Source: Escherichia coli
GTDB taxonomy: Bacteria; Pseudomonadota; Gammaproteobacteria; Enterobacterales; Enterobacteriaceae
NCBI RefSeq assembly: GCF_044324875.1
Contig: NZ_CP172185.1
Length of the DNA: 64,000 nt
Reading direction: 5' to 3' (one strand)
The translations under genes were made by a program, and so were the position numbers. Under the pieces are notes generated by a model, which saw nothing but the letters and a program-made list of their open reading frames with translations, was not told the DNA's origin and searched no databases. Positions 5,582 through 56,144 of the stretch are shown here, one piece after another (within the stretch, counting starts at the first letter, position 1; the number at the start of each line of letters is the position of its first letter).

Positions 5582-7495
5582 TTACTTACGACCTGCCAGC
5601 AGTTCCAGCACTTCATCCACGCTGGTGGTGTGTGCCAGACGCTCGATGACAGACTCATCATCCAGTGCATTGGTCAGGCTGGTGATAACCTGAATGTGCT
5701 CGTTGTTACGGGCAGCAATACCAATCACCAGACGGGCAATGTCATCTTCTTCTTCACCGAAGCGCACGCCTTCCGGGTACTGGCAGAACACCACGCCCGT
5801 TTTCAGTACGCGATCTTTCGCTTCAACCGTACCGTGCGGTACCGCGATGGACTCACCCAGATAAGTCGGGGTCAGTTTTTCACGATCCAGCATCGCCTGA
5901 ACGTATTCCGGCTCAACGTAACCGCCTTTCACCAGCTGCTCGCCAGCAAAACGAATCGCTTCTTCTTTGGTGGCCGCTTTGCGACCGAGGAAGATGTTCT
6001 CCGCGCCCAGTTTGAACAGGTTAGCACTGGAATCGTCAAAGCTGTCTTTCAGACTGTCTTTCACTTTCACTTCGTTTTCAGTATGGCGCTGGGCAGCAAC
6101 CAGACGTTCGGTCAGGCTGGTGTACAGGCCGCTGTCGAGGAAGTTGGTCAGCGAAATATGCTGTGCCTGCGGAACCTGGCGCATAGCGCGTTCGGTCAGG
6201 TCACGGTGAGTGATGACCAGGTCCACATCTGGCGGCAGGTTGTTGATCGCGCTGTTAGTAACAGAAATCTGCGACAGACCTGCATCCTGAATTTTCTTAC
6301 GCAGCACACCTGCGCCCATCGCACTGGAACCCATACCGGCATCACAGGCAACGATGATTTTACGTACGTGGCTCAGGTCGTTAGTCACATCGCCCGCAGA
6401 CAGCGGGGACGCACCTTTAGACTCAGCTTTCATGTCCTGCATACGACGAGTTGCTGCTTCAATATCATCTTCTTCTTTCACTTTGCTGGTTTTCAGCAGA
6501 ATGGCAGAGACAACGAAGGAGACAGCCATCGCCGCACACACACCCGCGATGTTAGCGAAATAAGCACCTTTTGGTGTCATCGCCAGTACAGCAAGGATAG
6601 AACCCGGAGATGCCGGAGAAACCAGACCACCGCCCAGGATAGTCAGCGTGAACACGCCAGTCATACCACCGAGGATAACGGCCAGAATCAGACGCGGATT
6701 CATCAGCACATACGGGAAGTAGATTTCGTGGATACCGCCCAGGAAGTGGATGATTGCCGCACCGCCCGCAGACTGTTTAGCGCTACCACGACCAAAGAAC
6801 ATGTACGCCAGCAGCACGCCCATACCCGGACCTGGGTTAGCTTCAATCAGGAAGAAGATGGATTTACCCAGTTCATGGGACTGCTGAATGCCCAGCGGCG
6901 AGAAGATACCGTGGTTAATGGCGTTGTTGAGGAACAGGATTTTCGCCGGTTCAACAAAGATAGACGCCAGCGGCAGCATGTCATGGACAACCATGAAGTT
7001 AACGCCCGCAGCCAGCATTTTGGACAGGGCTTCAACAATCGGGCCAATGCCGAGGAATGCCAGAATAGCGAGGATCATCCCGATGATGCCTGCGGAGAAG
7101 TTATTCACCAGCATCTCAAAACCGGATTTGATCTTACCGTCTACCCAGCGGTCGAAGTGCTTAATGCACCAGCCACCCAGCGGACCTGCAATCATAGAAC
7201 CGAGGAACATCGGCATGTCTGCGCCGACGATAACGCCCATGGTGGTAATGGCACCGACTACGCCGCCACGTTCGCCGCCTACCAGCTTACCACCGGTATA
7301 ACCGATCAGCAGCGGCAGGAGATAAGTGATCATCGGCCCGACCAGCTTCGCCAGCGTTTCGTTCGGTAACCACCCTGTTGGAATAAATAACGCGGTGATG
7401 ATACCCCACGCGATAAACGCGCCGATATTTGGCATCACCATGTTGCTGAGGAAACGACCAAAGCTTTGCACTTTGATCTTAATATCGGATGACAT
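5582..7495 (-). CDS. mtlA: PTS mannitol-specific EIICBA component
   Basis: 637-aa ORF, MSSDIKIKVQSFGRFLSNMVMPNIGAF..., long membrane domain followed by EIIB and EIIA domains. Confidence 0.95.
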   Translation of the reverse strand: MSSDIKIKVQSFGRFLSNMVMPNIGAFIAWGIITALFIPTGWLPNETLAKLVGPMITYLLPLLIGYTGGKLVGGERGGVVGAITTMGVIVGADMPMFLGSMIAGPLGGWCIKHFDRWVDGKIKSGFEMLVNNFSAGIIGMILAILAFLGIGPIVEALSKMLAAGVNFMVVHDMLPLASIFVEPAKILFLNNAINHGIFSPLGIQQSHELGKSIFFLIEANPGPGMGVLLAYMFFGRGSAKQSAGGAAIIHFLGGIHEIYFPYVLMNPRLILAVILGGMTGVFTLTILGGGLVSPASPGSILAVLAMTPKGAYFANIAGVCAAMAVSFVVSAILLKTSKVKEEDDIEAATRRMQDMKAESKGASPLSAGDVTNDLSHVRKIIVACDAGMGSSAMGAGVLRKKIQDAGLSQISVTNSAINNLPPDVDLVITHRDLTERAMRQVPQAQHISLTNFLDSGLYTSLTERLVAAQRHTENEVKVKDSLKDSFDDSSANLFKLGAENIFLGRKAATKEEAIRFAGEQLVKGGYVEPEYVQAMLDREKLTPTYLGESIAVPHGTVEAKDRVLKTGVVFCQYPEGVRFGEEEDDIARLVIGIAARNNEHIQVITSLTNALDDESVIERLAHTTSVDEVLELLAGRK

Positions 7496-8031: not shown

Positions 8032-8394
8032 ATGTTTCTAAACTATTTCGCGTTGGGAGTGCTGATCTTCGTCTTTCTGGTGATTTTTTATGGAATCATC
8101 GCGATACATGACATCCCTTATCTGATTGCCAAAAAGCGCAACCACCCCCATGCCGACGCTATTCATACAGCGGGCTGGGTGAGCCTGTTTACTCTGCATG
8201 TTATCTGGCCGTTTCTGTGGATCTGGGCGACGCTCTATCAACCGGAGCGCGGCTGGGGCATGCAGTCACATGTTGCGTCGCAAGAGAAAGCGACTGACCC
8301 GGAAATCGCCGCACTTTCTGACCGAATTTCCCGGCTGGAGCACCAACTCGCCGCCGAGAAAAAGACTGACTATTCCACGTTCCCGGAGATCTAA
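8032..8394 (+). CDS. yibI: Small inner-membrane protein, DUF3302 family
   Basis: 120-aa [24 protein letters not shown] with N-terminal TM segment; GAGG-like SD upstream; paralog of yiaW at 17175. Confidence 0.85.
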
Positions 8395-8396
8395 AT

Positions 8397-9533
8397 ATGG
8401 ATCTATTGATTGTTTTAACTTACGTGGCGCTGGCGTGGGCGGTCTTTAAAATCTTCCGCATTCCGGTGAATCAGTGGACGCTGGCGACGGCGGCGCTGGG
8501 AGGCGTGTTTCTGGTGAGTGGTTTGATTTTGTTGATGAACTACAACCACCCTTACACTTTTACCGCGCAAAAGGCAGTGATAGCGATCCCCATCACGCCA
8601 CAGGTGACGGGAATTGTTACTGAAGTCACCGACAAAAATAATCAGCTTATTCAGAAGGGCGAGGTGCTTTTTAAGCTCGACCCGGTTCGTTACCAGGCGC
8701 GAGTTGACAGACTTCAGGCTGACCTGATGACGGCGACGCATAATATAAAGACGCTGCGCGCGCAGCTCACTGAAGCGCAGGCCAACACCACCCAGGTTTC
8801 AGCGGAGCGCGACCGTCTGTTTAAAAATTATCAACGTTACCTGAAAGGCAGCCAGGCGGCGGTGAATCCGTTCTCGGAACGTGACATCGACGATGCGCGG
8901 CAAAACTTCCTCGCGCAGGACGCGCTGGTGAAAGGCTCGGTGGCGGAGCAGGCGCAGATCCAGAGCCAGCTCGACAGTATGGTTAACGGCGAGCAATCGC
9001 AGATTGTGAGCTTAAGAGCGCAACTTACTGAAGCAAAATATAACCTTGAGCAGACTGTCATTCGCGCACCAAGCAATGGCTACGTTACTCAGGTACTGAT
9101 CCGCCCAGGTACATACGCAGCTGCCTTGCCGCTACGTCCGGTGATGGTTTTCATCCCCGAGCAAAAACGGCAAATTGTCGCCCAATTTCGGCAGAACTCG
9201 CTGTTACGTCTGAAACCCGGCGATGATGCGGAAGTGGTGTTTAACGCGCTACCTGGGCAGGTGTTCCACGGCAAACTGACCAGTATTTTACCTGTCGTGC
9301 CAGGCGGTTCGTATCAGGCGCAAGGGGTATTGCAATCATTAACGGTCGTGCCCGGCACGGACGGTGTGCTGGGAACCATTGAACTGGACCCCAACGATGA
9401 TATCGATGCCTTACCCGACGGCATCTACGCCCAGGTGGCGGTTTACTCCGACCATTTCAGCCATGTTTCGGTGATGCGAAAAGTGCTGCTAAGAATGACC
9501 AGCTGGATGCATTATCTTTATTTGGATCATTGA
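8397..9533 (+). CDS. yibH: HlyD-family membrane fusion protein (periplasmic adaptor)
   Basis: 378-aa ORF, N-terminal TM segment, long coiled-coil region (RLQADLMTA...), starts 3 bp after yibI; paralog of yiaV. Confidence 0.85.
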
Positions 9534-9603
9534 GACTTATATCACCTGTGTTTTGCGTGAGCCTGAGCCATACTGATATTTTTCCTCGCACAAAGGACTC
9601 GGC

Positions 9604-10212
9604 ATGAAACTCGTCGGTAGCTACACCAGCCCGTTTGTACGCAAACTTTCTATTCTGTTGTTAGAAAAGGGCATAACTTTCGAATTTATTAATGAACTGC
9701 CCTATAACGCGGACAACGGCGTGGCGCAATTTAACCCGTTAGGGAAAGTGCCGGTGCTGGTGACCGAAGAGGGCGAATGCTGGTTTGATTCGCCGATCAT
9801 CGCTGAATATATTGAATTAATGAATGTCGCTCCGGCGATGTTGCCGCGCGATCCGCTGGAGTCGTTGCGGGTGCGCAAAATTGAGGCACTGGCGGATGGC
9901 ATTATGGATGCCGGGCTGGTATCGGTGCGTGAACAGGCGCGTCCAGCGGCGCAGCAGTCTGAAGATGAATTGTTACGCCAGCGGGAGAAAATCAACCGCA
10001 GTCTGGATGTGCTGGAAGGATATCTGGTCGATGGCACACTCAAAACCGATACGGTCAATCTGGCGACTATCGCCATTGCCTGTGCCGTCGGATATCTCAA
10101 TTTCCGCCGCGTTGCGCCAGGTTGGTGTGTCGACCGCCCACACTTAGTCAAACTGGTCGAAAACCTGTTTAGCCGCGAAAGTTTTGCTCGCACCGAACCG
10201 CCAAAGGCTTGA
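9604..10212 (+). CDS. yibF: Glutathione S-transferase family protein
   Basis: 202-aa ORF with GST N-terminal thioredoxin-like fold motifs. Confidence 0.85.
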
Positions 10213-10309
10213 TGCGCGATATGTCCTCCTGACCCATCTCACGTTACAATCCGTGGTTATGTTAAACGCCCTTCTCCGTGTGAGAGGGCCTTGATCAGCC
10301 AGGTTTCCT

Positions 10310-11701
10310 ATGACAACCGAAACGCGTTTCCTCTATAGTCAACTTCCGGCTATTGATCGCTTATTGCGCGATAGCTCCTTCCTTTCTTTGCGTGATACTT
10401 ATGGTCACACCCGCGTGGTGGAATTGCTGCGTCAGATGCTTGACGAAGCGCGAGAAGTGATTCGTGACAGCCAGACGCTGCCCGCATGGTGTGAAAACTG
10501 GGCGCAAGAAGTCGATGCCCGACTGACGAAGGAGGCGCAGAGCGCGCTGCGTCCGGTGATCAACCTGACGGGAACCGTGCTGCATACCAACCTTGGTCGA
10601 GCTTTACAGGCGGAAGCCGCGGTGGAAGCCGTTGCGCAGGCTATGCGTTCGCCAGTGACCCTCGAGTACGATCTGGACGACGCCGGACGCGGACATCGCG
10701 ATCGGGCGCTGGCGCAGCTGCTGTGCCGTATTACGGGGGCGGAAGATGCCTGTATCGTTAATAACAATGCGGCGGCGGTGTTATTGATGTTGGCGGCCAC
10801 TGCTAGCGGGAAAGAGGTGGTGGTATCTCGCGGCGAACTGGTGGAGATTGGCGGCGCGTTTCGTATTCCTGATGTCATGCGTCAGGCAGGCTGCACCCTA
10901 CACGAAGTAGGGACCACCAACCGCACGCACGCGAATGATTATCGTCAGGCGGTGAATGAAAATACCGCACTGTTGATGAAAGTACATACCAGTAACTACA
11001 GCATTCAGGGGTTCACCAAAGCGATAGACGAAGCTGAACTGGTGGCGCTTGGCAAAGAACTGGATATTCCCGTGGTGACTGATTTAGGCAGTGGCTCGCT
11101 GGTCGATCTTAGCCAGTACGGTTTGCCGAAAGAGCCAATGCCGCAGGAGTTGATTGCGGCGGGCGTCAGTCTGGTGAGTTTCTCCGGCGACAAGTTGTTA
11201 GGCGGGCCGCAGGCAGGGATTATCGTTGGTAAAAAAGAGATGATCGCCCGCCTGCAAAGCCACCCGCTGAAGCGTGCATTACGCGCGGATAAAATGACCC
11301 TCGCGGCGCTGGAAGCCACGTTGCGTCTTTATTTACACCCTGAAGCTCTGAGTGAAAAATTACCGACCCTGCGCCTGCTTACCCGCAGCGCAGAGGTCAT
11401 TCAAATCCAGGCACAACGTTTACAGGCTCCCCTTGCCGCACATTACGGCGCGGAGTTTGCGGTACAGGTTATGCCATGTCTTTCGCAGATTGGCAGTGGT
11501 TCGCTGCCGGTTGATCGCCTGCCGAGCGCGGCATTAACGTTTACACCCCATGATGGACGCGGTAGCCACCTTGAGTCATTAGCCGCCCGCTGGCGTGAAT
11601 TGCCAGTGCCGGTGATTGGTCGTATTTATGACGGACGATTGTGGCTGGATTTACGCTGCCTTGAAGATGAGCAACGGTTTTTGGAGATGTTGTTGAAATG
11701 A
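10310..11701 (+). CDS. selA: L-seryl-tRNA(Sec) selenium transferase
   Basis: 463-aa [24 protein letters not shown]..., PLP-lysine region [13 protein letters not shown]. Confidence 0.95.
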
Positions 11702-13542
11702 TTATTGCGACTGCCGGACACGTTGACCACGGCAAAACAACCTTATTGCAGGCGATTACTGGCGTAAATGCCGATCGTCTGCCGGAAGAAAAAAAGCGCG
11801 GCATGACCATCGATCTCGGCTATGCCTACTGGCCGCAGCCGGATGGTCGCGTGCCTGGTTTTATCGACGTACCCGGTCATGAAAAGTTTCTTTCCAACAT
11901 GCTGGCGGGCGTTGGTGGTATCGATCACGCGCTGTTGGTGGTGGCGTGCGATGACGGCGTGATGGCTCAGACTCGTGAGCATCTGGCGATTTTGCAGCTG
12001 ACCGGTAACCCGATGCTGACAGTGGCGCTGACCAAAGCCGATCGCGTGGACGAAGCGCGTGTTGATGAGGTTGAACGCCAGGTAAAGGAGGTGCTGCGGG
12101 AATACGGTTTTGCTGAGGCAAAACTGTTTATCACCGCAGCAACCGAAGGTCGGGGAATTGATGCCCTGCGCGAGCATTTGCTTCAGTTACCAGAACGTGA
12201 ACACGCCAGCCAACATAGTTTCCGCCTCGCGATCGACCGTGCATTTACCGTAAAAGGTGCCGGGCTGGTCGTCACCGGTACGGCGTTAAGCGGGGAAGTG
12301 AAGGTAGGCGATTCACTCTGGCTGACTGGTGTAAATAAACCGATGCGTGTACGTGCGCTGCATGCACAAAACCAGCCAACAGAAACCGCCCATGCCGGGC
12401 AGCGTATCGCGCTTAACATCGCGGGTGATGCGGAAAAAGAGCAGATTAACCGTGGCGACTGGCTGCTTACCGATGCGCCGCCGGAGCCGTTCACACGGGT
12501 GATTGTCGAGCTTCAAACCCATACACCGCTGAACCAGTGGCAGCCGCTGCATATTCACCACGCCGCCAGCCACGTCACGGGACGCGTTTCGCTGCTTGAA
12601 GATAACCTTGCCGAGCTGGTGTTCGACACGCCGCTATGGCTGGCGGATAACGATCGCCTGGTGCTGCGCGATATCTCGGCCCGCAACACGCTGGCGGGGG
12701 CGCGTGTGGTGATGCTTAACCCGCCGCGTCGCGGTAAGCGTAAGCCGGAATATCTGCAATGGCTGGCGTCTCTTGCACGGGTGCAGAGTGATGCCGATGC
12801 GTTATCTGTTCATCTGGAACGCGGAGCGGTTAACCTTGCAGATTTCGCCTGGGCACGGCAGCTCAACGGCGAAGGGATGCGCGAACTGCTGCAACAGCCT
12901 GGTTATATTCAGGCTGGTTATAGCTTGTTGAATGCGCCGGTTGCCGCCCGCTGGCAGCGGAAAATTCTCGACACATTAGCGACTTATCATGAGCAACATC
13001 GCGATGAACCTGGTCCTGGGCGAGAACGTCTGCGACGTATGGCGTTGCCAATGGAAGATGAAGCGCTGGTACTGTTGCTGATTGAAAAGATGCGCGAAAG
13101 CGGCGACATCCTCAGTCATCACGGTTGGCTGCATCTGCCGGATCATAAAGCGGGCTTCAGCGAAGAGCAGCAGGCCATCTGGCAAAAAGCAGAGCCGCTG
13201 TTTGGTGACGAGCCGTGGTGGGTGCGTGATCTGGCAAAAGAGACGGGAACCGACGAGCAGGCAATGCGCCTGACGCTACGCCAGGCGGCGCAGCAAGGAA
13301 TTATTACCGCGATCGTTAAAGATCGTTATTACCGTAACGATCGGATTGTCGAGTTTGCCAATATGATCCGCGATCTCGATCAGGAGTGTGGTTCAACCTG
13401 CGCGGCGGATTTCCGCGATCGCTTAGGTGTTGGTCGAAAACTGGCAATTCAAATTCTGGAATATTTTGACCGCATTGGCTTTACGCGTCGTCGTGGAAAT
13501 GATCATTTATTGCGCGACGCATTATTATTTCCGGAAAAATAA
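11698..13542 (+). CDS. selB: Selenocysteine-specific translation elongation factor
   Basis: 614-aa ORF with GTPase P-loop [11 protein letters not shown], overlapping the selA stop by 4 bp. Confidence 0.95.
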
Positions 13543-13601
13543 GGAAATGATTAATTAAGTTTTAAAATAAATTAATACAAAATTCTTATGAATTTAAAAA
13601 A

Positions 13602-13637
13602 AGCACATTGTTTAATGAATACAATGTGCTTTTTATT
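13602..13637 (+). terminator. Rho-independent terminator downstream of selB
   Basis: 9-bp stem agcacattg / caatgtgct followed by tttttatt. Confidence 0.55.
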
Positions 13638-13731
13638 AGATTAATTTTGATAATCAATAATACTGATCATATTTTTGAATGAAAATCCTCAGTAAGCTGC
13701 CCGCCCTTTTTTACACTTTCAGGAGTGTGTT

Positions 13732-14883
13732 ATGGCAGCTTCAACCTTTTTTATTCCTGCCGTGAATGTTATTGGTGCTGATTCATTGAATGATGCAATG
13801 AATATGATGGCAGATTATGGATTTACCCGTACCTTAATTGTCACTGACAATATGTTAACGAAATTGGGTATGGCGGGTGATGTGCAAAAAGCACTGGAAG
13901 AACGCAATATTTTTAGCGTTATTTATGATGGCACCCAACCTAACCCCACCACGGAAAACGTCGCTGCAGGTTTGAAATTACTTAAAGAAAATAATTGCGA
14001 TAGCGTGATTTCCTTAGGCGGTGGTTCTCCACACGACTGCGCAAAAGGTATTGCGCTGGTGGCAGCCAATGGTGGCGATATTCGCGATTACGAAGGCGTT
14101 GACCGCTCTGCAAAACCGCAGCTGCCGATGATCGCCATCAATACCACGGCGGGTACGGCCTCTGAAATGACCCGTTTCTGCATCATCACTGACGAAGCGC
14201 GTCATATCAAAATGGCGATTGTTGATAAACATGTAACTCCGTTGCTTTCTGTCAATGACTCCTCGCTGATGATCGGTATGCCGAAGTCACTGACCGCCGC
14301 AACGGGTATGGATGCCTTAACACACGCTATCGAAGCGTATGTCTCTATCGCTGCAACGCCGATCACTGACGCTTGCGCACTGAAAGCGGTGACCATGATT
14401 GCCGAAAACCTGCCGTTAGCCGTTGAAGATGGCAGCAATGCTAAAGCGCGTGAAGCAATGGCTTATGCCCAGTTCCTCGCTGGTATGGCGTTCAACAACG
14501 CATCTCTTGGTTATGTTCATGCGATGGCGCACCAACTGGGCGGTTTCTACAACCTGCCACACGGTGTATGTAATGCTGTTCTGCTGCCACACGTTCAGGT
14601 GTTCAACAGCAAAGTCGCTGCTGCGCGTCTGCGTGACTGTGCTGCTGCCATGGGCGTTAACGTGACAGGCAAAAATGACGCGGAAGGCGCAGAAGCGTGC
14701 ATCAATGCCATCCGTGAACTGGCGAAGAAAGTGAATATCCCGGCAGGCCTGCGTGACCTGAACGTGAAAGAAGAGGATTTCGCGGTACTGGCCACCAATG
14801 CCCTGAAAGATGCGTGTGGGTTTACTAACCCGATTCAGGCAACTCACGAAGAGATTGTGGCAATTTATCGCGCTGCGATGTAA
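13732..14883 (+). CDS. yiaY: Iron-containing alcohol dehydrogenase
   Basis: 383-aa ORF with Fe-ADH family motifs ([11 protein letters not shown], histidine cluster). Confidence 0.9.
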
Positions 14884-15083
14884 TCATCATTCCCCCAATG
14901 GCTGGCTAATTGTCAGCCATTTTTTAAACTATCTCAAAATTTGCGATTTTTGAGAGAGTTTTAGTTATCTCTGTAACCCTTGCCCGTAAATTCGTGATAG
15001 CCGTCGTAAAGCTGTTACCGACTGGCGAAGATTTCGCCAGCCACGTCTACCCTTGTTATACCTCACACCGCAAGGAGACGATC

Positions 15084-16622
15084 ATGACCAATAATCCCCC
15101 TTCAGCACAGATTAAGCCCGGCGAGTATGGTTTCCCCCTCAAGTTAAAAACCCGCTATGACAACTTTATTGGCGGCGAATGGGTAGCCCCTGCCGATGGT
15201 GAGTATTACCAGAACCTGACGCCGGTGACCGGGCAGCTGCTGTGCGAAGTGGCGTCTTCGGGCAAACGAGACATCGATCTGGCGCTGGATGCTGCGCACA
15301 AAGTGAAAGATAAATGGGCGCACACCTCGGTGCAGGATCGTGCGGCGATTCTGTTTAAGATTGCCGATCGAATGGAACAAAACCTCGAGCTGTTAGCGAC
15401 AGCTGAAACCTGGGATAACGGCAAACCCATTCGCGAAACCAGTGCTGCTGATGTACCGCTGGCGATTGACCATTTCCGCTATTTCGCCTCGTGTATTCGG
15501 GCGCAGGAAGGTGGGATCAGTGAAGTTGATAGCGAAACCGTGGCCTATCATTTCCATGAACCGTTAGGCGTGGTGGGGCAGATTATCCCGTGGAACTTCC
15601 CGCTGCTGATGGCGAGCTGGAAAATGGCCCCTGCGCTGGCGGCGGGCAACTGCGTGGTGCTGAAACCCGCACGGCTTACCCCGCTTTCTGTACTGCTGCT
15701 AATGGAAATCGTCGGTGATTTACTGCCGCCGGGCGTGGTGAACGTGGTCAACGGTGCAGGTGGGGAAATTGGCGAATATCTGGCGACCTCGAAACGCATC
15801 GCCAAAGTGGCGTTTACCGGCTCAACGGAAGTGGGTCAACAAATTATGCAATACGCCACGCAAAACATTATTCCGGTGACGCTGGAGCTGGGCGGCAAAT
15901 CGCCAAATATCTTCTTTGCTGACGTGATGGATGAAGAAGATGCCTTTTTTGATAAAGCGCTGGAAGGCTTTGCACTGTTTGCCTTTAACCAGGGCGAAGT
16001 TTGCACCTGTCCAAGCCGTGCTTTAGTGCAGGAGTCTATCTACGAACGCTTCATGGAACGCGCCATCCGCCGTGTTGAAAGTATTCGTAGCGGTAACCCG
16101 CTCGACAGCGTGACGCAAATGGGCGCGCAGGTTTCTCACGGGCAACTGGAAACCATCCTCAACTACATTGATATTGGTAAAAAAGAGGGCGCAGACGTGC
16201 TCACCGGCGGGCGGCGCAAGCTGCTGGAAGGAGAACTGAAAGACGGCTACTACCTCGAACCGACGATTCTGTTTGGTCAGAATAATATGCGCGTGTTCCA
16301 GGAAGAAATTTTTGGTCCGGTGCTGGCGGTGACCACCTTCAAAACGATGGAAGAAGCGCTGGAGCTGGCGAACGACACACAATATGGCCTGGGCGCGGGT
16401 GTCTGGAGCCGCAACGGTAATCTGGCCTATAAGATGGGGCGCGGCATTCAGGCTGGGCGCGTGTGGACCAACTGTTATCACGCTTACCCGGCACATGCGG
16501 CGTTTGGCGGCTACAAACAGTCGGGCATCGGACGCGAAACCCATAAGATGATGCTTGAGCATTACCAGCAAACCAAGTGCCTGCTGGTGAGCTATTCGGA
16601 TAAACCGTTGGGGCTGTTCTGA
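15084..16622 (+). CDS. aldB: Aldehyde dehydrogenase B
   Basis: Track ORF trimmed to ATG at 15084 preceded by aaggaga SD; [15 protein letters not shown]..., ALDH catalytic Cys region. Confidence 0.95.
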
Positions 16623-16653
16623 TATAAGAAGCTGGTCGCATTGGGTATTCATT

Positions 16654-16738
16654 GCCTGATGCGACGCTTACGCGTTTTATCATGCCTACGGGGACCTGAC
16701 CGTAGGCCGGATAAGGCGTACACGCCGCATCCGGCATA
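16654..16738. repeat. REP-type palindromic elements downstream of aldB
   Basis: gcctgatgcgacgcttacgcg ... ccgtaggccggataaggcgtacacgccgcatccggc. Confidence 0.6.
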
Positions 16739-17174
16739 AACAAAGCGCACGTTGTTACAATTTACGTTTTAAACCTACGTGCGCAATAACCCAATAACCC
16801 AGACTACGCCAACAGAAGTGCGTTTCTGGGGCGTGTTTTGCCAGGAGTTTAATCTCGCGTTTCGATGGTGAGCGGGCGAACCAGACCATAAATCACCATT
16901 GGCGTTCCGAGGCCAATCAGCAATAAACGGTAGATAATTGAAGGTTTAATACGCTTAATCTGTACTGTGGATGTTTTACTGGAGTTATTCATTAGTTTGG
17001 CCAATAGTTCCATTATTTCAATATGATAAGCCTCGCACTGTTGAAAAGCCAGGCTGCACATTTCAGAAAGTATATAAAAAACAATATGTCGTTATATAAA
17101 TAAGGAAATTGCACCGCATTATGGTATTTCATAATATGCGTTAATTGTTCTTTTCTATATTCTCTGAGGGAAAT

Positions 17175-17498
17175 ATGTTCCTGGATTATTTTGCATTGGG
17201 AGTGCTTATTTTTGTATTTCTGGTGATATTCTATGGGATTATTATTTTACATGATGTTCCCTACCTGATTGCTAAAAAACGTAATCATCCACATGCCGAC
17301 GCCATTCATGTTGCTGGTTGGGTAAGTCTTTTTACGTTACATGTTATCTGGCCATTTTTGTGGATTTGGGCCACGCTTTACCGCCCGGAGCGGGGATGGG
17401 GAATGCAAAACCATGACTCCTCCGTTGTGCAACTACAACAGCGTATTGCCGGGCTGGAGAAACAGCTCGCCGACATCAAATCCTCTTCTGCCGAGTAA
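17175..17498 (+). CDS. yiaW: Small inner-membrane protein, DUF3302 family (yibI paralog)
   Basis: Track ORF starts at TTG 17145; likely true start ATG 17175 after gaggg SD; 107 aa [21 protein letters not shown]. Confidence 0.85.
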
Positions 17499-17503
17499 TA
17501 CTT

Positions 17504-18640
17504 ATGGATTTACTGATTATTTTAACCTATGTGGCTTTCGCATGGGCAATGTTTAAGATCTTCAAAATTCCTGTAAATAAATGGACCATTCCCACAGCGG
17601 CCCTGGGTGGCATATTTATTGTCAGCGGTTTAATTCTGTTAATGAACTATAACCATCCGTATACCTTTAAAGCGCAAAAAGCGGTTATTTCTATTCCTGT
17701 TGTCCCACAGGTGACAGGCGTGGTGATCGAAGTGACGGACAAGAAAAATACGCTGATTAAAAAAGGTGAGGTGCTATTTCGACTGGACCCGACGCGTTAT
17801 CAGGCGCGGGTGGATCGGCTGATGGCGGATATCGTTACCGCAGAACATAAACAGCGGGCGTTGGGCGCAGAGTTAGATGAGATGGCGGCGAATACTCAGC
17901 AGGCAAAGGCCACGCGGGATAAATTCGCTAAAGAGTATCAGCGTTACGCACGCGGCAGTCAGGCGAAAGTAAACCCGTTTTCAGAACGTGATATCGATGT
18001 GGCGCGGCAAAATTATCTGGCACAGGAAGCCTCCGTAAAATCAGCGGCGGCGGAACAAAAACAGATCCTGAGCCAGCTGGATAGCCTGGTGTTGGGTGAA
18101 CATTCTCAAATCGCCAGCCTGAAAGCACAGCTCGCGGAAGCAAAATATAACCTTGAGCAGACGATAGTGCGTGCGCCGAGCGATGGTTATGTGACCCAGG
18201 TACTGATTCGTCCGGGTACCTATGCCGCGTCGCTGCCGCTACGTCCGGTGATGGTGTTTATACCCGATCAGAAACGACAAATCGTGGCGCAGTTCCGTCA
18301 GAACTCCTTGCTGCGACTGGCTCCTGGCGACGATGCGGAAGTGGTGTTTAATGCTCTGCCAGGTAAGGTATTCAGCGGTAAGCTGGCAGCCATTAGTCCA
18401 GCCGTTCCCGGCGGAGCTTATCAGTCGACCGGCACCTTACAGACGTTAAACACAGCGCCGGGTTCAGATGGCGTTATCGCGACCATTGAACTGGATGAGC
18501 ATACTGATTTGAGCGCATTACCAGACGGTATTTACGCCCAGGTGGCGGTCTACTCTGATCATTTCAGCCATGTCTCGGTGATGCGCAAAGTACTGTTACG
18601 CATGACCAGCTGGGTGCATTACCTTTATCTCGATCATTAA
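17504..18640 (+). CDS. yiaV: HlyD-family membrane fusion protein (yibH paralog)
   Basis: 378-aa [23 protein letters not shown]..., same architecture as yibH. Confidence 0.85.
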
Positions 18641-19611
18641 TCTTCGCTTTCCGCCGTTTGTTCAGGCCGCAGTTGCTGCGACTGAGCAAGCTGGTGGCGA
18701 ATTTCACGCAGCATTTCATCCAGCACATACTGGACCCGCCAGGGCTGGTATTCCCGTTTACGGAAGATAGCCACCAGATCCAGCCACCATTCATACGGGT
18801 GCTGAAAGCAGGGCACCAGCGTGCCGTCTTGCAGGTCGCTCTGCACACTTTTGTCTGGCGCAAACACAATCCCCAGGTGATTTCGTGCCAGCTCCAGCGC
18901 AGATTGCGTGTTGTCGCAAACGTAATTTCCCTTCACGCGATAATCCCGCACCTCTTTACTCCCGGCGACGTTGAAGCGCCAGATATTCGCGTCGTCGATC
19001 ATCATCGAGTCGATCAAAATACAGGAGTGATGTTCGAGTTCGTCAGGACGGCTAATGGGATGTTTCTCAAGATAGCGCTGGCTGGCATAAGCGGTTACGG
19101 CATATTGGGTAATAAAACTGGCAACCAGCGATTCATCTTTTGGTTGGGCGTAGCTGATTAAAACATCACAATCATCGGGAAATTCGACGCCTTCATAAAA
19201 GGCATTACGCTCAAGATTGCAGGTTTTTAGCGATAAGGTGATATCACCGATATCTTTAATTTTATCGATTACATGTTTGGATAAATAGGTAATTATGCCG
19301 GTTGGTGCATAGATAGTGACCCGACCACGTTTCTCATGCTTATAATCTGCAATAAAATTATTAAGCTGCTCGTTTCTGTCCAGCATGTCGTTGATGTACG
19401 GTAACAGCACGGTGCCAAAAGGTGTGAGCATCAGCTGTCGGGTGGTTCGGTCAAAGACTTTTAAACCCACTTTTGATTCAAAATCAGCAAGATATTTGCT
19501 GACGTTGGCCTGTGCGATGCCAAGTACAGTCGCGGCATGGCTGATATTTTCACTGGCAGCGATTACCGAGATAATTTTTAACTCCCGGTACTTAAGTTGT
19601 AATTTTGTCAT
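18637..19611 (-). CDS. yiaU: LysR-family transcriptional regulator
   Basis: 324-aa ORF with N-terminal HTH ([27 protein letters not shown]); convergent with yiaV and overlapping it by 4 bp. Confidence 0.9.
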
Positions 19612-19734
19612 CGCAACAGCCCAATTATATATAATTTTATATATTACTATATAAATATGAATCTTGCACCGGATAAATTGTAAGCATTACTATGCCGACT
19701 CTTTTTTATCTTATTTTAAAATGGAATACCGGAC

Positions 19735-20475
19735 ATGTTAATTAACCGCAATATTGTGGCGTTATTTGCGTTGCCTTTTATGGCAAGCGCAACTGCTTCT
19801 GAATTATCCATTGGTGCTGGTGCGGCTTATAATGAATCGCCTTATCGCGGTTATAATGAAAATACAAAGGCAATTCCGCTGATTAGTTATGAAGGTGATA
19901 CTTTTTATGTTCGTCAGACCACGTTAGGTTTTATTCTGTCGCAAAGTGAAAAAAATGAACTTAGCCTGACCGCATCCTGGATGCCGCTGGAATTTGACCC
20001 TGCCGATAATGACGATTATGCCATGCAACAGCTTGATAAGCGTGATAGTACGGCTATGGCGGGGGTTGCCTGGTATCACCACGAGCGTTGGGGAACCGTG
20101 AAAGCCTCTGCGGCTGCGGACGTTCTGGATAACAGCAACGGCTGGGTGGGGGAGCTATCGGTATTCCACAAAATGCAGATAGGTCGCCTGTCGCTGACAC
20201 CTGCGCTGGGCGTTCTCTATTATGACGAGAATTTCAGTGACTATTACTATGGCATTTCAGAGAGTGAGTCCCGTCGTAGCGGTCTGGCAAGTTATTCCGC
20301 GCAGGATGCCTGGGTGCCCTATGTCAGCCTGACGGCAAAATACCCGATAGGAGAGCACGTCGTATTGATGGCGAGCGCAGGATACAGCGAGCTGCCGGAA
20401 GAGATTACCGACAGCCCGATGGTTGATCGTAATGAGAGTTTTACCTTTGTCACTGGCGTGAGCTGGCGTTTTTAA
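19735..20475 (+). CDS. yiaT: Outer-membrane protein, MipA/OmpV family
   Basis: 246-aa ORF with signal peptide and C-terminal ...SWRF beta-barrel terminus. Confidence 0.85.
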   Translation: MLINRNIVALFALPFMASATASELSIGAGAAYNESPYRGYNENTKAIPLISYEGDTFYVRQTTLGFILSQSEKNELSLTASWMPLEFDPADNDDYAMQQLDKRDSTAMAGVAWYHHERWGTVKASAAADVLDNSNGWVGELSVFHKMQIGRLSLTPALGVLYYDENFSDYYYGISESESRRSGLASYSAQDAWVPYVSLTAKYPIGEHVVLMASAGYSELPEEITDSPMVDRNESFTFVTGVSWRF

Positions 20476-31506: not shown

Positions 31507-31620
31507 AACGAGTCCTTCTTGTTATGCTATATGTTTTCATTAATTGATATTATTGGTATTCGTAATATTTATTGGAAAGCGACTAATCAGAGATTCAATG
31601 TGCTATTTAAGTGAAACGGA

Positions 31621-32541
31621 TTAACGAGATTCATTCAGAGAGTGAATGCCGTTACGTAATATTTCGATGCGATGGTGCACATCAGCCGTCGCATTTATTT
31701 CCAGTAGCTTGATCCCAGCAAAATGCAATGTTGACGATTCTGCTACATTAAATAACTCGCGAACATGATCTGTGGTCATCAGGCTTTCTGCGCAGAATGG
31801 TGCAAACGGCGCGTGTAAATCCTGCCATTCTCCGTATGCTCCGTTTAGCGTCGTACCAGAGAACATCAACGCGCCGAGTTTTCCGGCTTGTTTCGCCATT
31901 TGGGTATGGGTCAGCGGCAACGCTGTATTGCGCCCTTCAATAGCGGAGCGCGCCCAGTTTATACAGATGCTGATGTCATAATCGGCAATAACTTCCAGCA
32001 CATTTTCTAAAGGCAAAAAGCCTTTGCGTGGAGAGGCAGATGTCATGGCGTCGCAGTGTTCCAGCACCAGTTTGCACGGCCAGTCCCAACTGGCGATTTC
32101 TTTTAACGAGCGGGCAAAAGCATCCGTCGCTTGTATAACATTAGGATTCGTTGCTAACGGTGCAGCCTGGATCTCCAGTGCGAGAACTTTATTGGCCTGC
32201 AATGAGTTGATTTTATTTAATAAGTGTCGATAGTACGCCACGCAGGCCTTGCGTTGTTCTTCATCGCTGGAGGCGAGACCAAAGCCGTTGTTTTCGCTGC
32301 GGCGACGCATGGTTTCCATCACTGCGGTGACGACAAATTTCCAGCTCTCTGGCGTATGACGGAGTAACCATTGATCGCCAAGAGGGTGGAAATTTTCCAG
32401 GCAGGGTTGTTCCAGACCGCGAATATCAGGGGTATCTGATAATTGTCGCCAGAATTCCTTCTCTTCCTCTTCACTTCTTTGATGAAAAGAAGGTGCACAG
32501 GGATACGCACCGATAATATAACCGGCATTATTCGCTTTCAT
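31621..32541 (-). CDS. Hypothetical protein (306 aa) embedded in the yiaK-sgbE operon; not a member of the recalled K-12 operon set
   Basis: Complete ORF co-oriented with the operon, 23 bp downstream of yiaL and 114 bp upstream of yiaM; no recognisable motif by eye. Confidence 0.65.
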
Positions 32542-32564
32542 TTTGTGCTCCAGTAATAACTTTT

Positions 32565-33032
<468 letters not shown>

Positions 33033-54421: not shown

Positions 54422-54673
54422 CGCTAAATAATAGAGCAACCTTTAATAATCTTCTGCTGAATAAAGATTGTCTCATATATTAATTTTATGAGATTTTTTT
54501 AGGATTATATCAAGGAGAAGAAACGAACTTATTAAGCTAGAATAGCCACGGGTGCTTGAGACTGTTTGTCTCAGGTATTCACCGAAAGGCAGACAGAGAA
54601 AAGCCCCACCTGACTATAAATCAAAGTGTACTGCACCCATTTTGTTGGACGATGAAATGGAATAGCCCCTGAT

Positions 54674-55195
54674 ATGTCAAAGCCAAAATACCCTTTTGAA
54701 AAGCGCCTTGAAGTCGTGAATCACTACTTCACTACTGATGATGGTTACAGGATCATCTCGGCACGTTTTGGTGTCCCCCGAACCCAGGTCAGGACATGGG
54801 TTGCCCTCTATGAAAAACATGGAGAAAAAGGTTTAATTCCCAAACCTAAAGGTGTTAGTGCTGATCCTGAGTTGCGTATTAAGGTCGTGAAAGCTGTGAT
54901 CGAGCAGCACATGTCCCTTAATCAGGCTGCTGCTCACTTTATGCTTGCTGGTAGTGGTTCTGTAGCCAGGTGGCTGAAGGTTTATGAAGAGCGCGGAGAA
55001 GCTGGTTTACGCGCGCTCAAGATTGGCACCAAAAGAAACATTGCAATATCAGTTGATCCAGAAAAAGCGGCATCAGCATTGGAGCTGTCAAAAGACCGAC
55101 GCATTGAGGATCTTGAAAGGCAAGTTCGATTTCTTGAAACGCGGCTTGTGTATCTAAAAAAGCTGAAAGCCTTAGCTCATCCCACGAAAAAGTGA
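54674..55195 (+). CDS. insJ: IS150 transposase OrfA (HTH)
   Basis: 173-aa ORF MSKPKYPFEKRLEVVNHYF...; slippery heptamer A-AAA-AAG at 55156-55162 in frame near its 3-prime end. Confidence 0.9.
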   Translation: MSKPKYPFEKRLEVVNHYFTTDDGYRIISARFGVPRTQVRTWVALYEKHGEKGLIPKPKGVSADPELRIKVVKAVIEQHMSLNQAAAHFMLAGSGSVARWLKVYEERGEAGLRALKIGTKRNIAISVDPEKAASALELSKDRRIEDLERQVRFLETRLVYLKKLKALAHPTKK

Positions 55196-56043
55196 AAGTA
55201 CTCAACGAGCTAAGGCAGTTTTATCCTCTTGATGAGCTTCTCAGGGCTGCGGAGATACCGCGCAGTACGTTTTATTACCATCTAAAGGCTCTCAGCAAGC
55301 CTGACAAGTATGCGGACGTTAAAAAGCGTATTGGTGAGATTTATCATGAGAATAGAGGCCGATACGGATACCGTAGGGTAACGCTGTCTCTTCATCGAGA
55401 AGGGAAACAGATTAACCATAAAGCTGTTCAGCGCCTGATGGGAACCCTCTCACTTAAGGCAGCGATTAAGGTCAAGCGATACCGCTCTTACAGAGGAGAG
55501 GTAGGGCAAACCGCCCCCAATGTTCTCCAAAGAGATTTCAAGGCTACGCGGCCAAACGAGAAGTGGGTTACCGATGTTACTGAATTTGCAGTCAATGGGC
55601 GCAAGCTGTATTTGTCTCCAGTAATAGATCTCTTCAACAACGAAGTTATTTCTTACAGCCTTTCGGAAAGACCAGTGATGAACATGGTCGAGAATATGCT
55701 CGATCAGGCATTCAAAAAGCTTAATCCTCACGAGCATCCTGTTCTGCACTCTGACCAGGGATGGCAGTATCGTATGAGAAGATATCAAAATATCCTTAAA
55801 GAATATGGTATTAAACAAAGCATGTCCAGAAAAGGCAATTGTCTGGATAATGCTGTGGTGGAGTGTTTCTTTGGAACCTTAAAATCGGAGTGTTTTTATC
55901 TTGATGAGTTCAGTAATATAAGCGAACTGAAGGATGCTGTTACGGAATATATTGAATACTACAACAGCAGAAGAATTAGCCTGAAATTAAAAGGTCTGAC
56001 TCCAATTGAATATCGGAATCAGACCTATATGCCTCGTGTTTAA
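55192..56043 (+). CDS. insK: IS150 transposase OrfB (DDE integrase core), expressed by -1 frameshift fusion with OrfA
   Basis: 283-aa ORF in the -1 frame relative to insJ; DDE/rve motifs ([19 protein letters not shown]). Confidence 0.9.
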
Positions 56044-56144
56044 CTGTCCAACTTTTTGGGGTCAGTACAAAGTGAGGCCCCTCTATGCATAGACACCATA
56101 AGGTTAGCCTCTTACTCGTTGGAAATCAACACAGGAGGCTGGGA

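Follow-up and report, generated by a model that had tools for sequence, protein, structure and literature searches.

The 70-bp yibH-yibF spacer of an Escherichia coli strain, very likely an ancestral and empty allele of the RhsA site

Results

Genes and signals at the yibH-yibF junction

The window, a 64-kb stretch of E. coli DNA, contains the yibIH pair followed by yibF and selAB, with mtlA on the other side (Table 1). A preliminary description had placed yibH and yibF only 70 bp apart, and this spacing is exact: yibH ends at 9533, and yibF begins at 9604. Gene identities were assigned by profile search. The 202-aa protein gave a full-length match to the NCBIfam YibF equivalog NF007682 (E value, 7e-123; 407.7 bits), the 378-aa protein is an adaptor of the HlyD/EmrA type, and the identity of selA was confirmed. 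Strain 7/2 has an identical junction, whose flanking genes are annotated in RefSeq as yibH and yibF. Both the sequence and the open reading frame (ORF) list show the 70-bp spacer to be free of ORFs; the two genes run in one direction with nothing but this short spacer between them, the arrangement by which an empty allele is recognized. A paralogue of yibI-yibH, yiaW-yiaV (17175-18637), lies approximately 8 kb downstream, with 73% and 77% protein identity.

Table 1. Features of the yibH-yibF region (window positions)
Feature	Position	Strand	Remarks
mtlA	5582-7495	divergent	Upstream of yibI; ORF list
yibI (DUF3302 small membrane protein)	8032..8394	+	First gene of the yibIH pair; ORF list, annotation in strain 7/2 and K-12
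yibH (HlyD/EmrA-type membrane-fusion adaptor)	8397..9533	+	378 aa; stop codon TGA at 9531-9533
yibH-yibF spacer	9534..9603	+	70 bp; unoccupied allele of the RhsA site, very likely ancestral
Segment not aligning to K-12 by BLAST	9535..9566	+	32 bp; K-12 counterpart is 8,249 bp
Terminator relic, right arm CACCTGTG plus TTTT	9543..9554	+	Orthology to intact hairpins of other genera
CATACT, probable yibF -10 hexamer	9569..9574	+	Conservation in 41 enterobacterial sequences
Shine-Dalgarno AAGGA	9593..9597	+	6 nt before the yibF ATG; GG invariant or nearly so in the 41-sequence alignment
yibF (glutathione S-transferase-like protein)	9604..10212	+	202 aa; NF007682
selA-selB, conserved right-hand neighbours	10310..13542	+	selA 10310-11701, selB 11698-13542; ORF list and profile match

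The corresponding region of K-12 MG1655 reads selB, selA, yibF, rhsA, yibA, yibJ, yibG, yibS, yibW, yibV, yibU, yibH, yibI, mtlA. The multi-kilobase Rhs element with accessory ORFs that the preliminary description had located between yibF and yibH of K-12 is indeed there in RefSeq, extending from rhsA to yibU, and far from being adjacent, the two genes are separated by eight others in MG1655. The alignment to the K-12 junctions that had been suggested was carried out and placed the breakpoints at 9534 and 9567, with one correction: the K-12 gene that adjoins yibH is the pseudogene yibU, not yibA. BLAST of window positions 9000-10300 against K-12 returned two blocks, 9000-9534 at 97.76% identity and 9567-10300, which holds yibF, at 99.86%. 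By pairwise alignment, an 8,249-bp insert in K-12 (NC_000913.3, 3761993-3770241) stands in place of window positions 9535-9566, the 32 bp ACTTATATCACCTGTGTTTTGCGTGAGCCTGA. These boundaries, 8,249 bp in K-12 versus 32 bp, reportedly agree with those of Feulner et al. 1990 (J Bacteriol 172:446), and the older account of the site is said to have regarded the 32 bp as unrelated to K-12.

We searched the entire 64-kb window for remnants of the island. No homologue of RhsA or YibA was found by tblastn with the K-12 proteins, and blastn with the whole K-12 island as the query detected no island DNA; as a positive control, K-12 RhsA matched the RHS_repeat, RHS, and Ntox34 profiles. Neither the core ORF nor the toxin tip, immunity gene, and orphan tips that mark an Rhs element are present at the site in the window.

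The preliminary description had also suggested a strain outside the K-12 lineage, a view that the wider comparison bears out: identity to K-12 is 97.8% over the flanks, and the nearest complete RefSeq E. coli genomes reach only 99.0% over 10 kb. Since identity to GTDB representatives of other Escherichia species is at most 94%, the window is, as judged by sequence identity, E. coli proper. Strain 7/2, identical over the 670-bp junction, is only 96.4 to 98.6% identical elsewhere.

A terminator relic and a putative yibF promoter in the spacer

In most genera, the spacer starts with a strong terminator hairpin, GGCAGG-loop-CCTGCC followed by a T run. For the intact hairpins of Citrobacter sp. Awk4, Enterobacter, and Raoultella, the folding energy is -35 to -38 kcal/mol (z scores of -4.4 to -5.3). 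The window retains a right arm and T tract that are orthologous to the CACCTGCC-TTTT of these hairpins. The left arm, however, is missing in Escherichia and in part of Citrobacter, and therefore no hairpin can form at 9543-9554: the window spacer folds at -13.1 kcal/mol (z score of +1.0), no better than its shuffles, and a terminator scan called no Rho-independent terminator in it.

Two nucleotides downstream of 9567, where homology to K-12 resumes, lies the hexamer CATACT, some 30 nt short of the yibF start codon. An alignment of 41 enterobacterial sequences shows no change in its ATA or its final T, and CATAAT, TATAAT, and TATACT are the sole variants, a trend toward TATAAT. The hexamer is kept whether the upstream gene is yibH or mtlA. 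We predict that CATACT is probably the -10 element of an unannotated yibF promoter. A consensus scan recognized no -35 hexamer or promoter in the spacer. Genomic SELEX data were uninformative for a yibF promoter, because the peak assigned to yibF, an RpoE-list entry, maps within rhsA, and the sole RpoD-list entry here is the yibIH/mtlA spacer. That divergent spacer between yibI and mtlA carries a constitutive sigma-70 promoter for yibIH (PMC3946193).

The spacer would thus be an ordinary boundary between two transcription units, composed of a decayed yibH terminator, the putative yibF -10 element, a short 5' untranslated region, and a Shine-Dalgarno sequence. Transcription of yibF in the window strain would probably come both from yibIH read-through and from its own promoter, and read-through is plausible because there is no terminator between the two units. 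In K-12, read-through from yibIH into yibF is impossible.

Single-sequence folds had raised the prospect of a conserved hairpin in which the region upstream of CATACT pairs with the yibF Shine-Dalgarno sequence. RNAalifold returned no consensus structure, and the helix was paired in 57.8% of cells versus 56.5% in shuffles, with 95 of 500 shuffles scoring as high; the hairpin was rejected. No known RNA family was found in 9300-9800; the best Rfam E value was 0.38, far below the gathering score.

Three alleles of the site among E. coli genomes

To place the junction in the population, we used 5,426 complete RefSeq E. coli genomes and called a junction contiguous when at least 80% of a 670-bp probe matched in one piece. 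A contiguous junction as in the window, at 97.6 to 100% identity, was found in 1,521 of these genomes (28%), ST131 included. The K-12-type rhsA/yibF junction is carried by 3,745/5,426 (69%), including O157:H7, O55:H7, and ATCC 8739, and the K-12-type yibH/island junction by 3,716/5,426 (68.5%). A third allele, defined by its yibF-side junction and first met in strain K56-43-un, accounts for another 143 of the 5,426 (2.6%). Among the few leftover genomes, strain QL57EC has an IS1 that replaces the stretch from beside yibL to the 5' end of yibF.

In K56-43-un (NZ_CP053079.1), the island between yibH and yibF occupies positions 9634-20000 of the extracted locus (10.37 kb; 36.5% GC) and carries a chaperone-usher fimbrial operon together with genes for an AraC-type regulator and an S6-peptidase autotransporter (SPATE) of 1,226 aa. 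Past the first 10 nt, it shows no homology to the K-12 Rhs island.

That strains vary at this site is already published as a presence/absence polymorphism of RhsA: Jackson et al. 2009 (PMC2935791) numbered the yibF/yibH site rhs locus 10 and inferred that the element was gained after the split from B2-type strains.

The short spacer in other genera and other cargoes at the site

A scan of species-representative genomes with a degenerate pattern for the YibF N terminus yielded 120 loci. Of these, 41 have yibF immediately after yibH, across a spacer of 61 to 106 bp, and in most of the 41 selA comes next; the yibF-selA adjacency is seen in most enterobacterial loci. The 41 loci belong to Citrobacter, Enterobacter, Kluyvera, Leclercia, Lelliottia, Raoultella, Klebsiella, Atlantibacter, Pluralibacter, Pseudocitrobacter, and three non-K-12 Escherichia lineages (E1V33, E69, and SCPM-O-B-8794). 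The spacer is exactly 70 bp and colinear with that of the window in Escherichia sp. E1V33, E. coli E69, SCPM-O-B-8794, and several Citrobacter, among them Citrobacter werkmanii and Citrobacter sp. On2M and FP75. By this alignment, the window spacer is orthologous to spacers outside E. coli. Because short homologous spacers recur across other genera, the short spacer is the ancestral state and the Rhs island is derived, in agreement with Jackson et al. 2009 (PMC2935791). One Raoultella locus has a yibH-yibF spacer of 381 bp.

Elsewhere, the region upstream of yibF holds other genes. Citrobacter youngae ATCC 29220 (locus L037, 6326-11298) has an rhs gene beside yibF and, as in K-12, divergent from it; the Rhs protein is 68% identical to RhsA, has a Peptidase_M91-like tip, and is accompanied by a small ORF. 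Citrobacter sp. Res13-Sevr-PEB04-36 (L103, 131-7543) has vgrG and rhs between yibH and yibF. The Rhs cores of these Citrobacter are 67 to 68% identical in protein sequence to E. coli RhsA, and their orientation to yibF is unchanged. Upstream of yibF, Escherichia albertii NBRC 107761 (L009, 89-781) has a MOSC/YiiM-like gene, and Salmonella enterica subsp. arizonae (L064, 75-7175) has genes for an arylsulfotransferase, PTS EIIC/B, a sulfatase, an aldose epimerase, RpiR, and a DUF202 protein; neither has yibIH there. In several genera without yibIH, mtlA adjoins yibF. Enterobacter loci differ in this respect, as L011, L044, and L071 contrast with L057, L072, and L126 in having either mtlA directly at yibF or yibIH in between. 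Klebsiella pneumoniae ATCC 13883 (L077) has only a yibH fragment, the last 43 codons.

Island boundaries

In the three occupied configurations compared (the Rhs island of K-12, the island of K56-43-un, and the vgrG-rhs island of Citrobacter sp. Res13), similarity to the empty allele ends with the TGAG at the yibH stop codon; the entry point of islands falls between about 9534 and 9544. In K56-43-un, the inserted DNA begins after 9534, and from 9539 onward the strain retains a diverged version of the 32-bp segment. The first 100 bp of K56-43-un rightward of 9567 contain 22 mismatches, an ungapped count taken though small indels are present; beyond that, most windows have 0 to 4 mismatches per 100 bp. 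The K-12 and K56-43-un islands, otherwise unrelated, both start with GGGGA[G/A]GGGG directly behind the yibH stop, a match unlikely to arise by chance at a fixed position.

K-12 also has a remnant of the spacer. Its last 22 nt to the left of 9567 (CTGCCCTTTTTCCCATCACCAG; NC_000913.3, about 3761993-3762014; locus L001, 3994-4015, minus strand) are in register with the right arm of the outgroup terminator, the T tract, and the downstream bases. Mean identity of this segment to the outgroup panel is 10.7/22, compared with 11.4 for the window's own segment, and just 0.024% of the other 22-mers in the K-12 island attain 10.7/22. In register with its window counterpart, the K-12 segment is identical at about 9/22 positions, next to a yibF block at 99.86%. 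The alignment of K-12 with the E. albertii spacer continues past the junction for another 17 nt, and the K-12 flank resembles the forms seen in E. albertii and Enterobacter more closely than it does the empty allele of E. coli. On the evidence of this alignment, K-12 keeps the spacer too, as a very divergent allele that switches abruptly to 99.86% identity at 9567, and its RhsA island seems to have come with a foreign flank. Because K-12 keeps a copy of the spacer in register, the true point of insertion is downstream of the yibH stop codon but upstream of the terminator relic. Two 10-mer matches, TTATATCACC and TTTATTTGGA, had been considered as relics of yibH or the spacer in the K-12 island end. 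They occur in swapped order, and in local alignment of the K-12 island end with the window 85 of 300 shuffles scored as high, so the matches were put down to chance.

We looked for signs of site-specific integration. ARAGORN found no tRNA or tmRNA gene in the window or in the occupied loci L001 (K-12), L003 (K56-43-un), L037, and L103, and the RefSeq annotation lists no integrase, recombinase, or transposase in the K-12 and K56-43-un islands. Pfam matches of selected island proteins were to AraC, S6 peptidase/autotransporter, VgrG, and Rhs families. Terminal repeats of the K-12 island are limited to single 10-mers (one direct, one inverted), the K56-43-un island has none of 9 nt or more, and the window spacer contains no repeats.

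Discussion

Ancestral allele or secondary loss

We consider it very likely that 9534-9603 preserves the ancestral form of the RhsA site and was never occupied, and that this reading as a whole explains both the anatomy of the spacer and the entry of islands. The same junction would also be seen if the strain had once carried RhsA and then deleted it, in which case 9535-9566 would be the scar left behind. Loss and degradation of Rhs loci are documented in E. coli strains (PMC2935791), and the IS1 of QL57EC demonstrates that IS-mediated deletion does happen at this locus. Yet spacers homologous to the 32 bp, and colinear with them, occur in Citrobacter and other Escherichia lineages, where the total length is again 70 bp, and a deletion would not rebuild an orthologous ancestral sequence; nor is any Rhs, YibA, or island DNA left in the window. 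Deletion is thus an improbable origin of the junction. Only recombination with an empty allele could rebuild the sequence, and the allele itself would then still be ancestral; the strain may have carried RhsA earlier and regained the empty allele by recombination with an empty-site strain.

The chance that the assembly collapsed or dropped an Rhs element as a multicopy repeat is negligible. Rhs cores are near-identical repeats of several kilobases (PMC2935791), and an E. albertii draft contig does stop 838 bp upstream of yibF, but the contiguous junction recurs at 97.6 to 100% identity in the 1,521 complete genomes and is colinear with outgroups. The 32-bp segment, moreover, is absent in such form from Rhs-bearing strains, and a repeat collapse cannot create it.

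How islands may enter the site

The preliminary description had called the site an unoccupied integration hotspot. It is unoccupied, and because the junction is variable across the family, with different cargoes in E. coli, Citrobacter, E. albertii, and Salmonella, the word hotspot is justified in a descriptive sense. Its stronger sense, that the spacer holds an attachment site for a recombinase of the islands, is very unlikely, although at least three unrelated cargoes (K-12, K56-43-un, and Res13) share a start point immediately behind the yibH TGAG and the two E. coli islands share their left-end G-rich motif. Against it, tRNA and tmRNA genes are lacking from the window and the occupied loci, the annotation of the K-12 and K56-43-un islands shows neither an integrase nor a transposase, flanking direct or inverted repeats are not above chance, and these two islands are otherwise unrelated. 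That the left breakpoint is shared does not argue for an att site, because this is expected if insertions fall anywhere before the terminator: recognizable homology ends with coding constraint, at the stop codon.

Under the reading that we prefer, an ancestral and never-occupied allele, foreign DNA would build up in the unconstrained stretch from the yibH stop to the terminator relic, and islands would most likely pass between strains by homologous recombination in the conserved flanks rather than by site-specific integration. We infer this mode of import because tRNA genes, integrases, and terminal repeats are lacking and the flank is divergent; the model draws on about 22 to 60 bp of divergent flank per island. 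A broader proposal is that the yibH/yibF junction is a cargo slot across enterobacterial genera, used for rhs, vgrG-rhs, and fimbrial plus SPATE modules that would insert into the few bases free of constraint from the yibH stop to its terminator and then move between species, by flank recombination, together with a short stretch of donor spacer. We offer it tentatively, as somewhat less probable than its opposite. If it is true, the K-12 RhsA element is an insertion with a xenologous flank ending at the yibF -10 element, not 8.2 kb replacing 32 unrelated bp.

Unrelated accessory genes gather between core genes at chromosomal hotspots and spread by homologous recombination in the flanks. The yibH/yibF site resembles such recombination hotspots in having unrelated cargoes between two core genes, no integrase or tRNA, and divergent sequence beside the islands; it differs from them, as described, in that transfer is read here from short divergent flanks only. 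With the tRNA and tmRNA island sites (selC, pheV, leuX, and ssrA), it shares an occupancy that varies by strain and a cargo for virulence or competition, but not a tRNA target, an integrase, or att direct repeats.

Relation to the RhsA element and significance of the empty site

The closest known system is the K-12 RhsA element (rhs locus 10) together with the RhsA-less strains of C. W. Hill's laboratory, which concern the same chromosomal site and the same flanking genes. In K-12, the element is a polymorphic-toxin island in which the rhsA core is accompanied by an Ntox34 toxin tip, the immunity gene yibA, and orphan tips; the window is without any Rhs component. Our account departs from the description of K-12 RhsA in that the 32 bp found here are ancestral spacer rather than unrelated filler, with a diverged copy of the 3' part kept in K-12. 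The passage of PMC3150448 that cites Hill's laboratory states that the C-terminal tip of RhsA is toxic and that yibA neutralizes it. Since its site is empty, the window strain has neither the RhsA toxin nor its immunity protein YibA nor the orphan tips, an absence that could affect competition between strains. The empty site also sets the strain apart from the Rhs-bearing lineages of A/B1/E type, K-12 and O157 among them.

Beyond describing the strain, the empty site is of little importance, and our refinements of the published polymorphism are minor. They are of modest value for Rhs evolution and the annotation of yibF: the ancestral nature of the 32 bp, the divergent K-12 flank, the reuse of the slot in Citrobacter and, with SPATE and fimbrial genes, in 2.6% of E. 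coli genomes, and the conserved putative -10 element.

Other features of the window

By colinearity with strain 7/2, the first 2,200 nt or so of the window (about 1-2200; approximate) start inside a large gene for a YadA-like trimeric autotransporter and continue with a DUF3251 gene, upstream of yibL. Between yiaM and yiaL lies a 1.1-kb segment (31518-32634) with a 306-aa ORF on the minus strand (31621-32541). In K56-43-un, an ORF annotated as a DUF4862 family protein occupies the position of this ORF, and the segment is absent from strain 7/2. A copy of IS150 (54627-56071; orfA 54674-55195, orfB 55192-56043) sits beside hokA/sokA, near the IS150 spot of K-12 but inverted relative to the flanks, and is followed by 41 bp (56072-56112) without a K-12 match. 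IS150 in the hokA/sokA region is common to many B2-like genomes.
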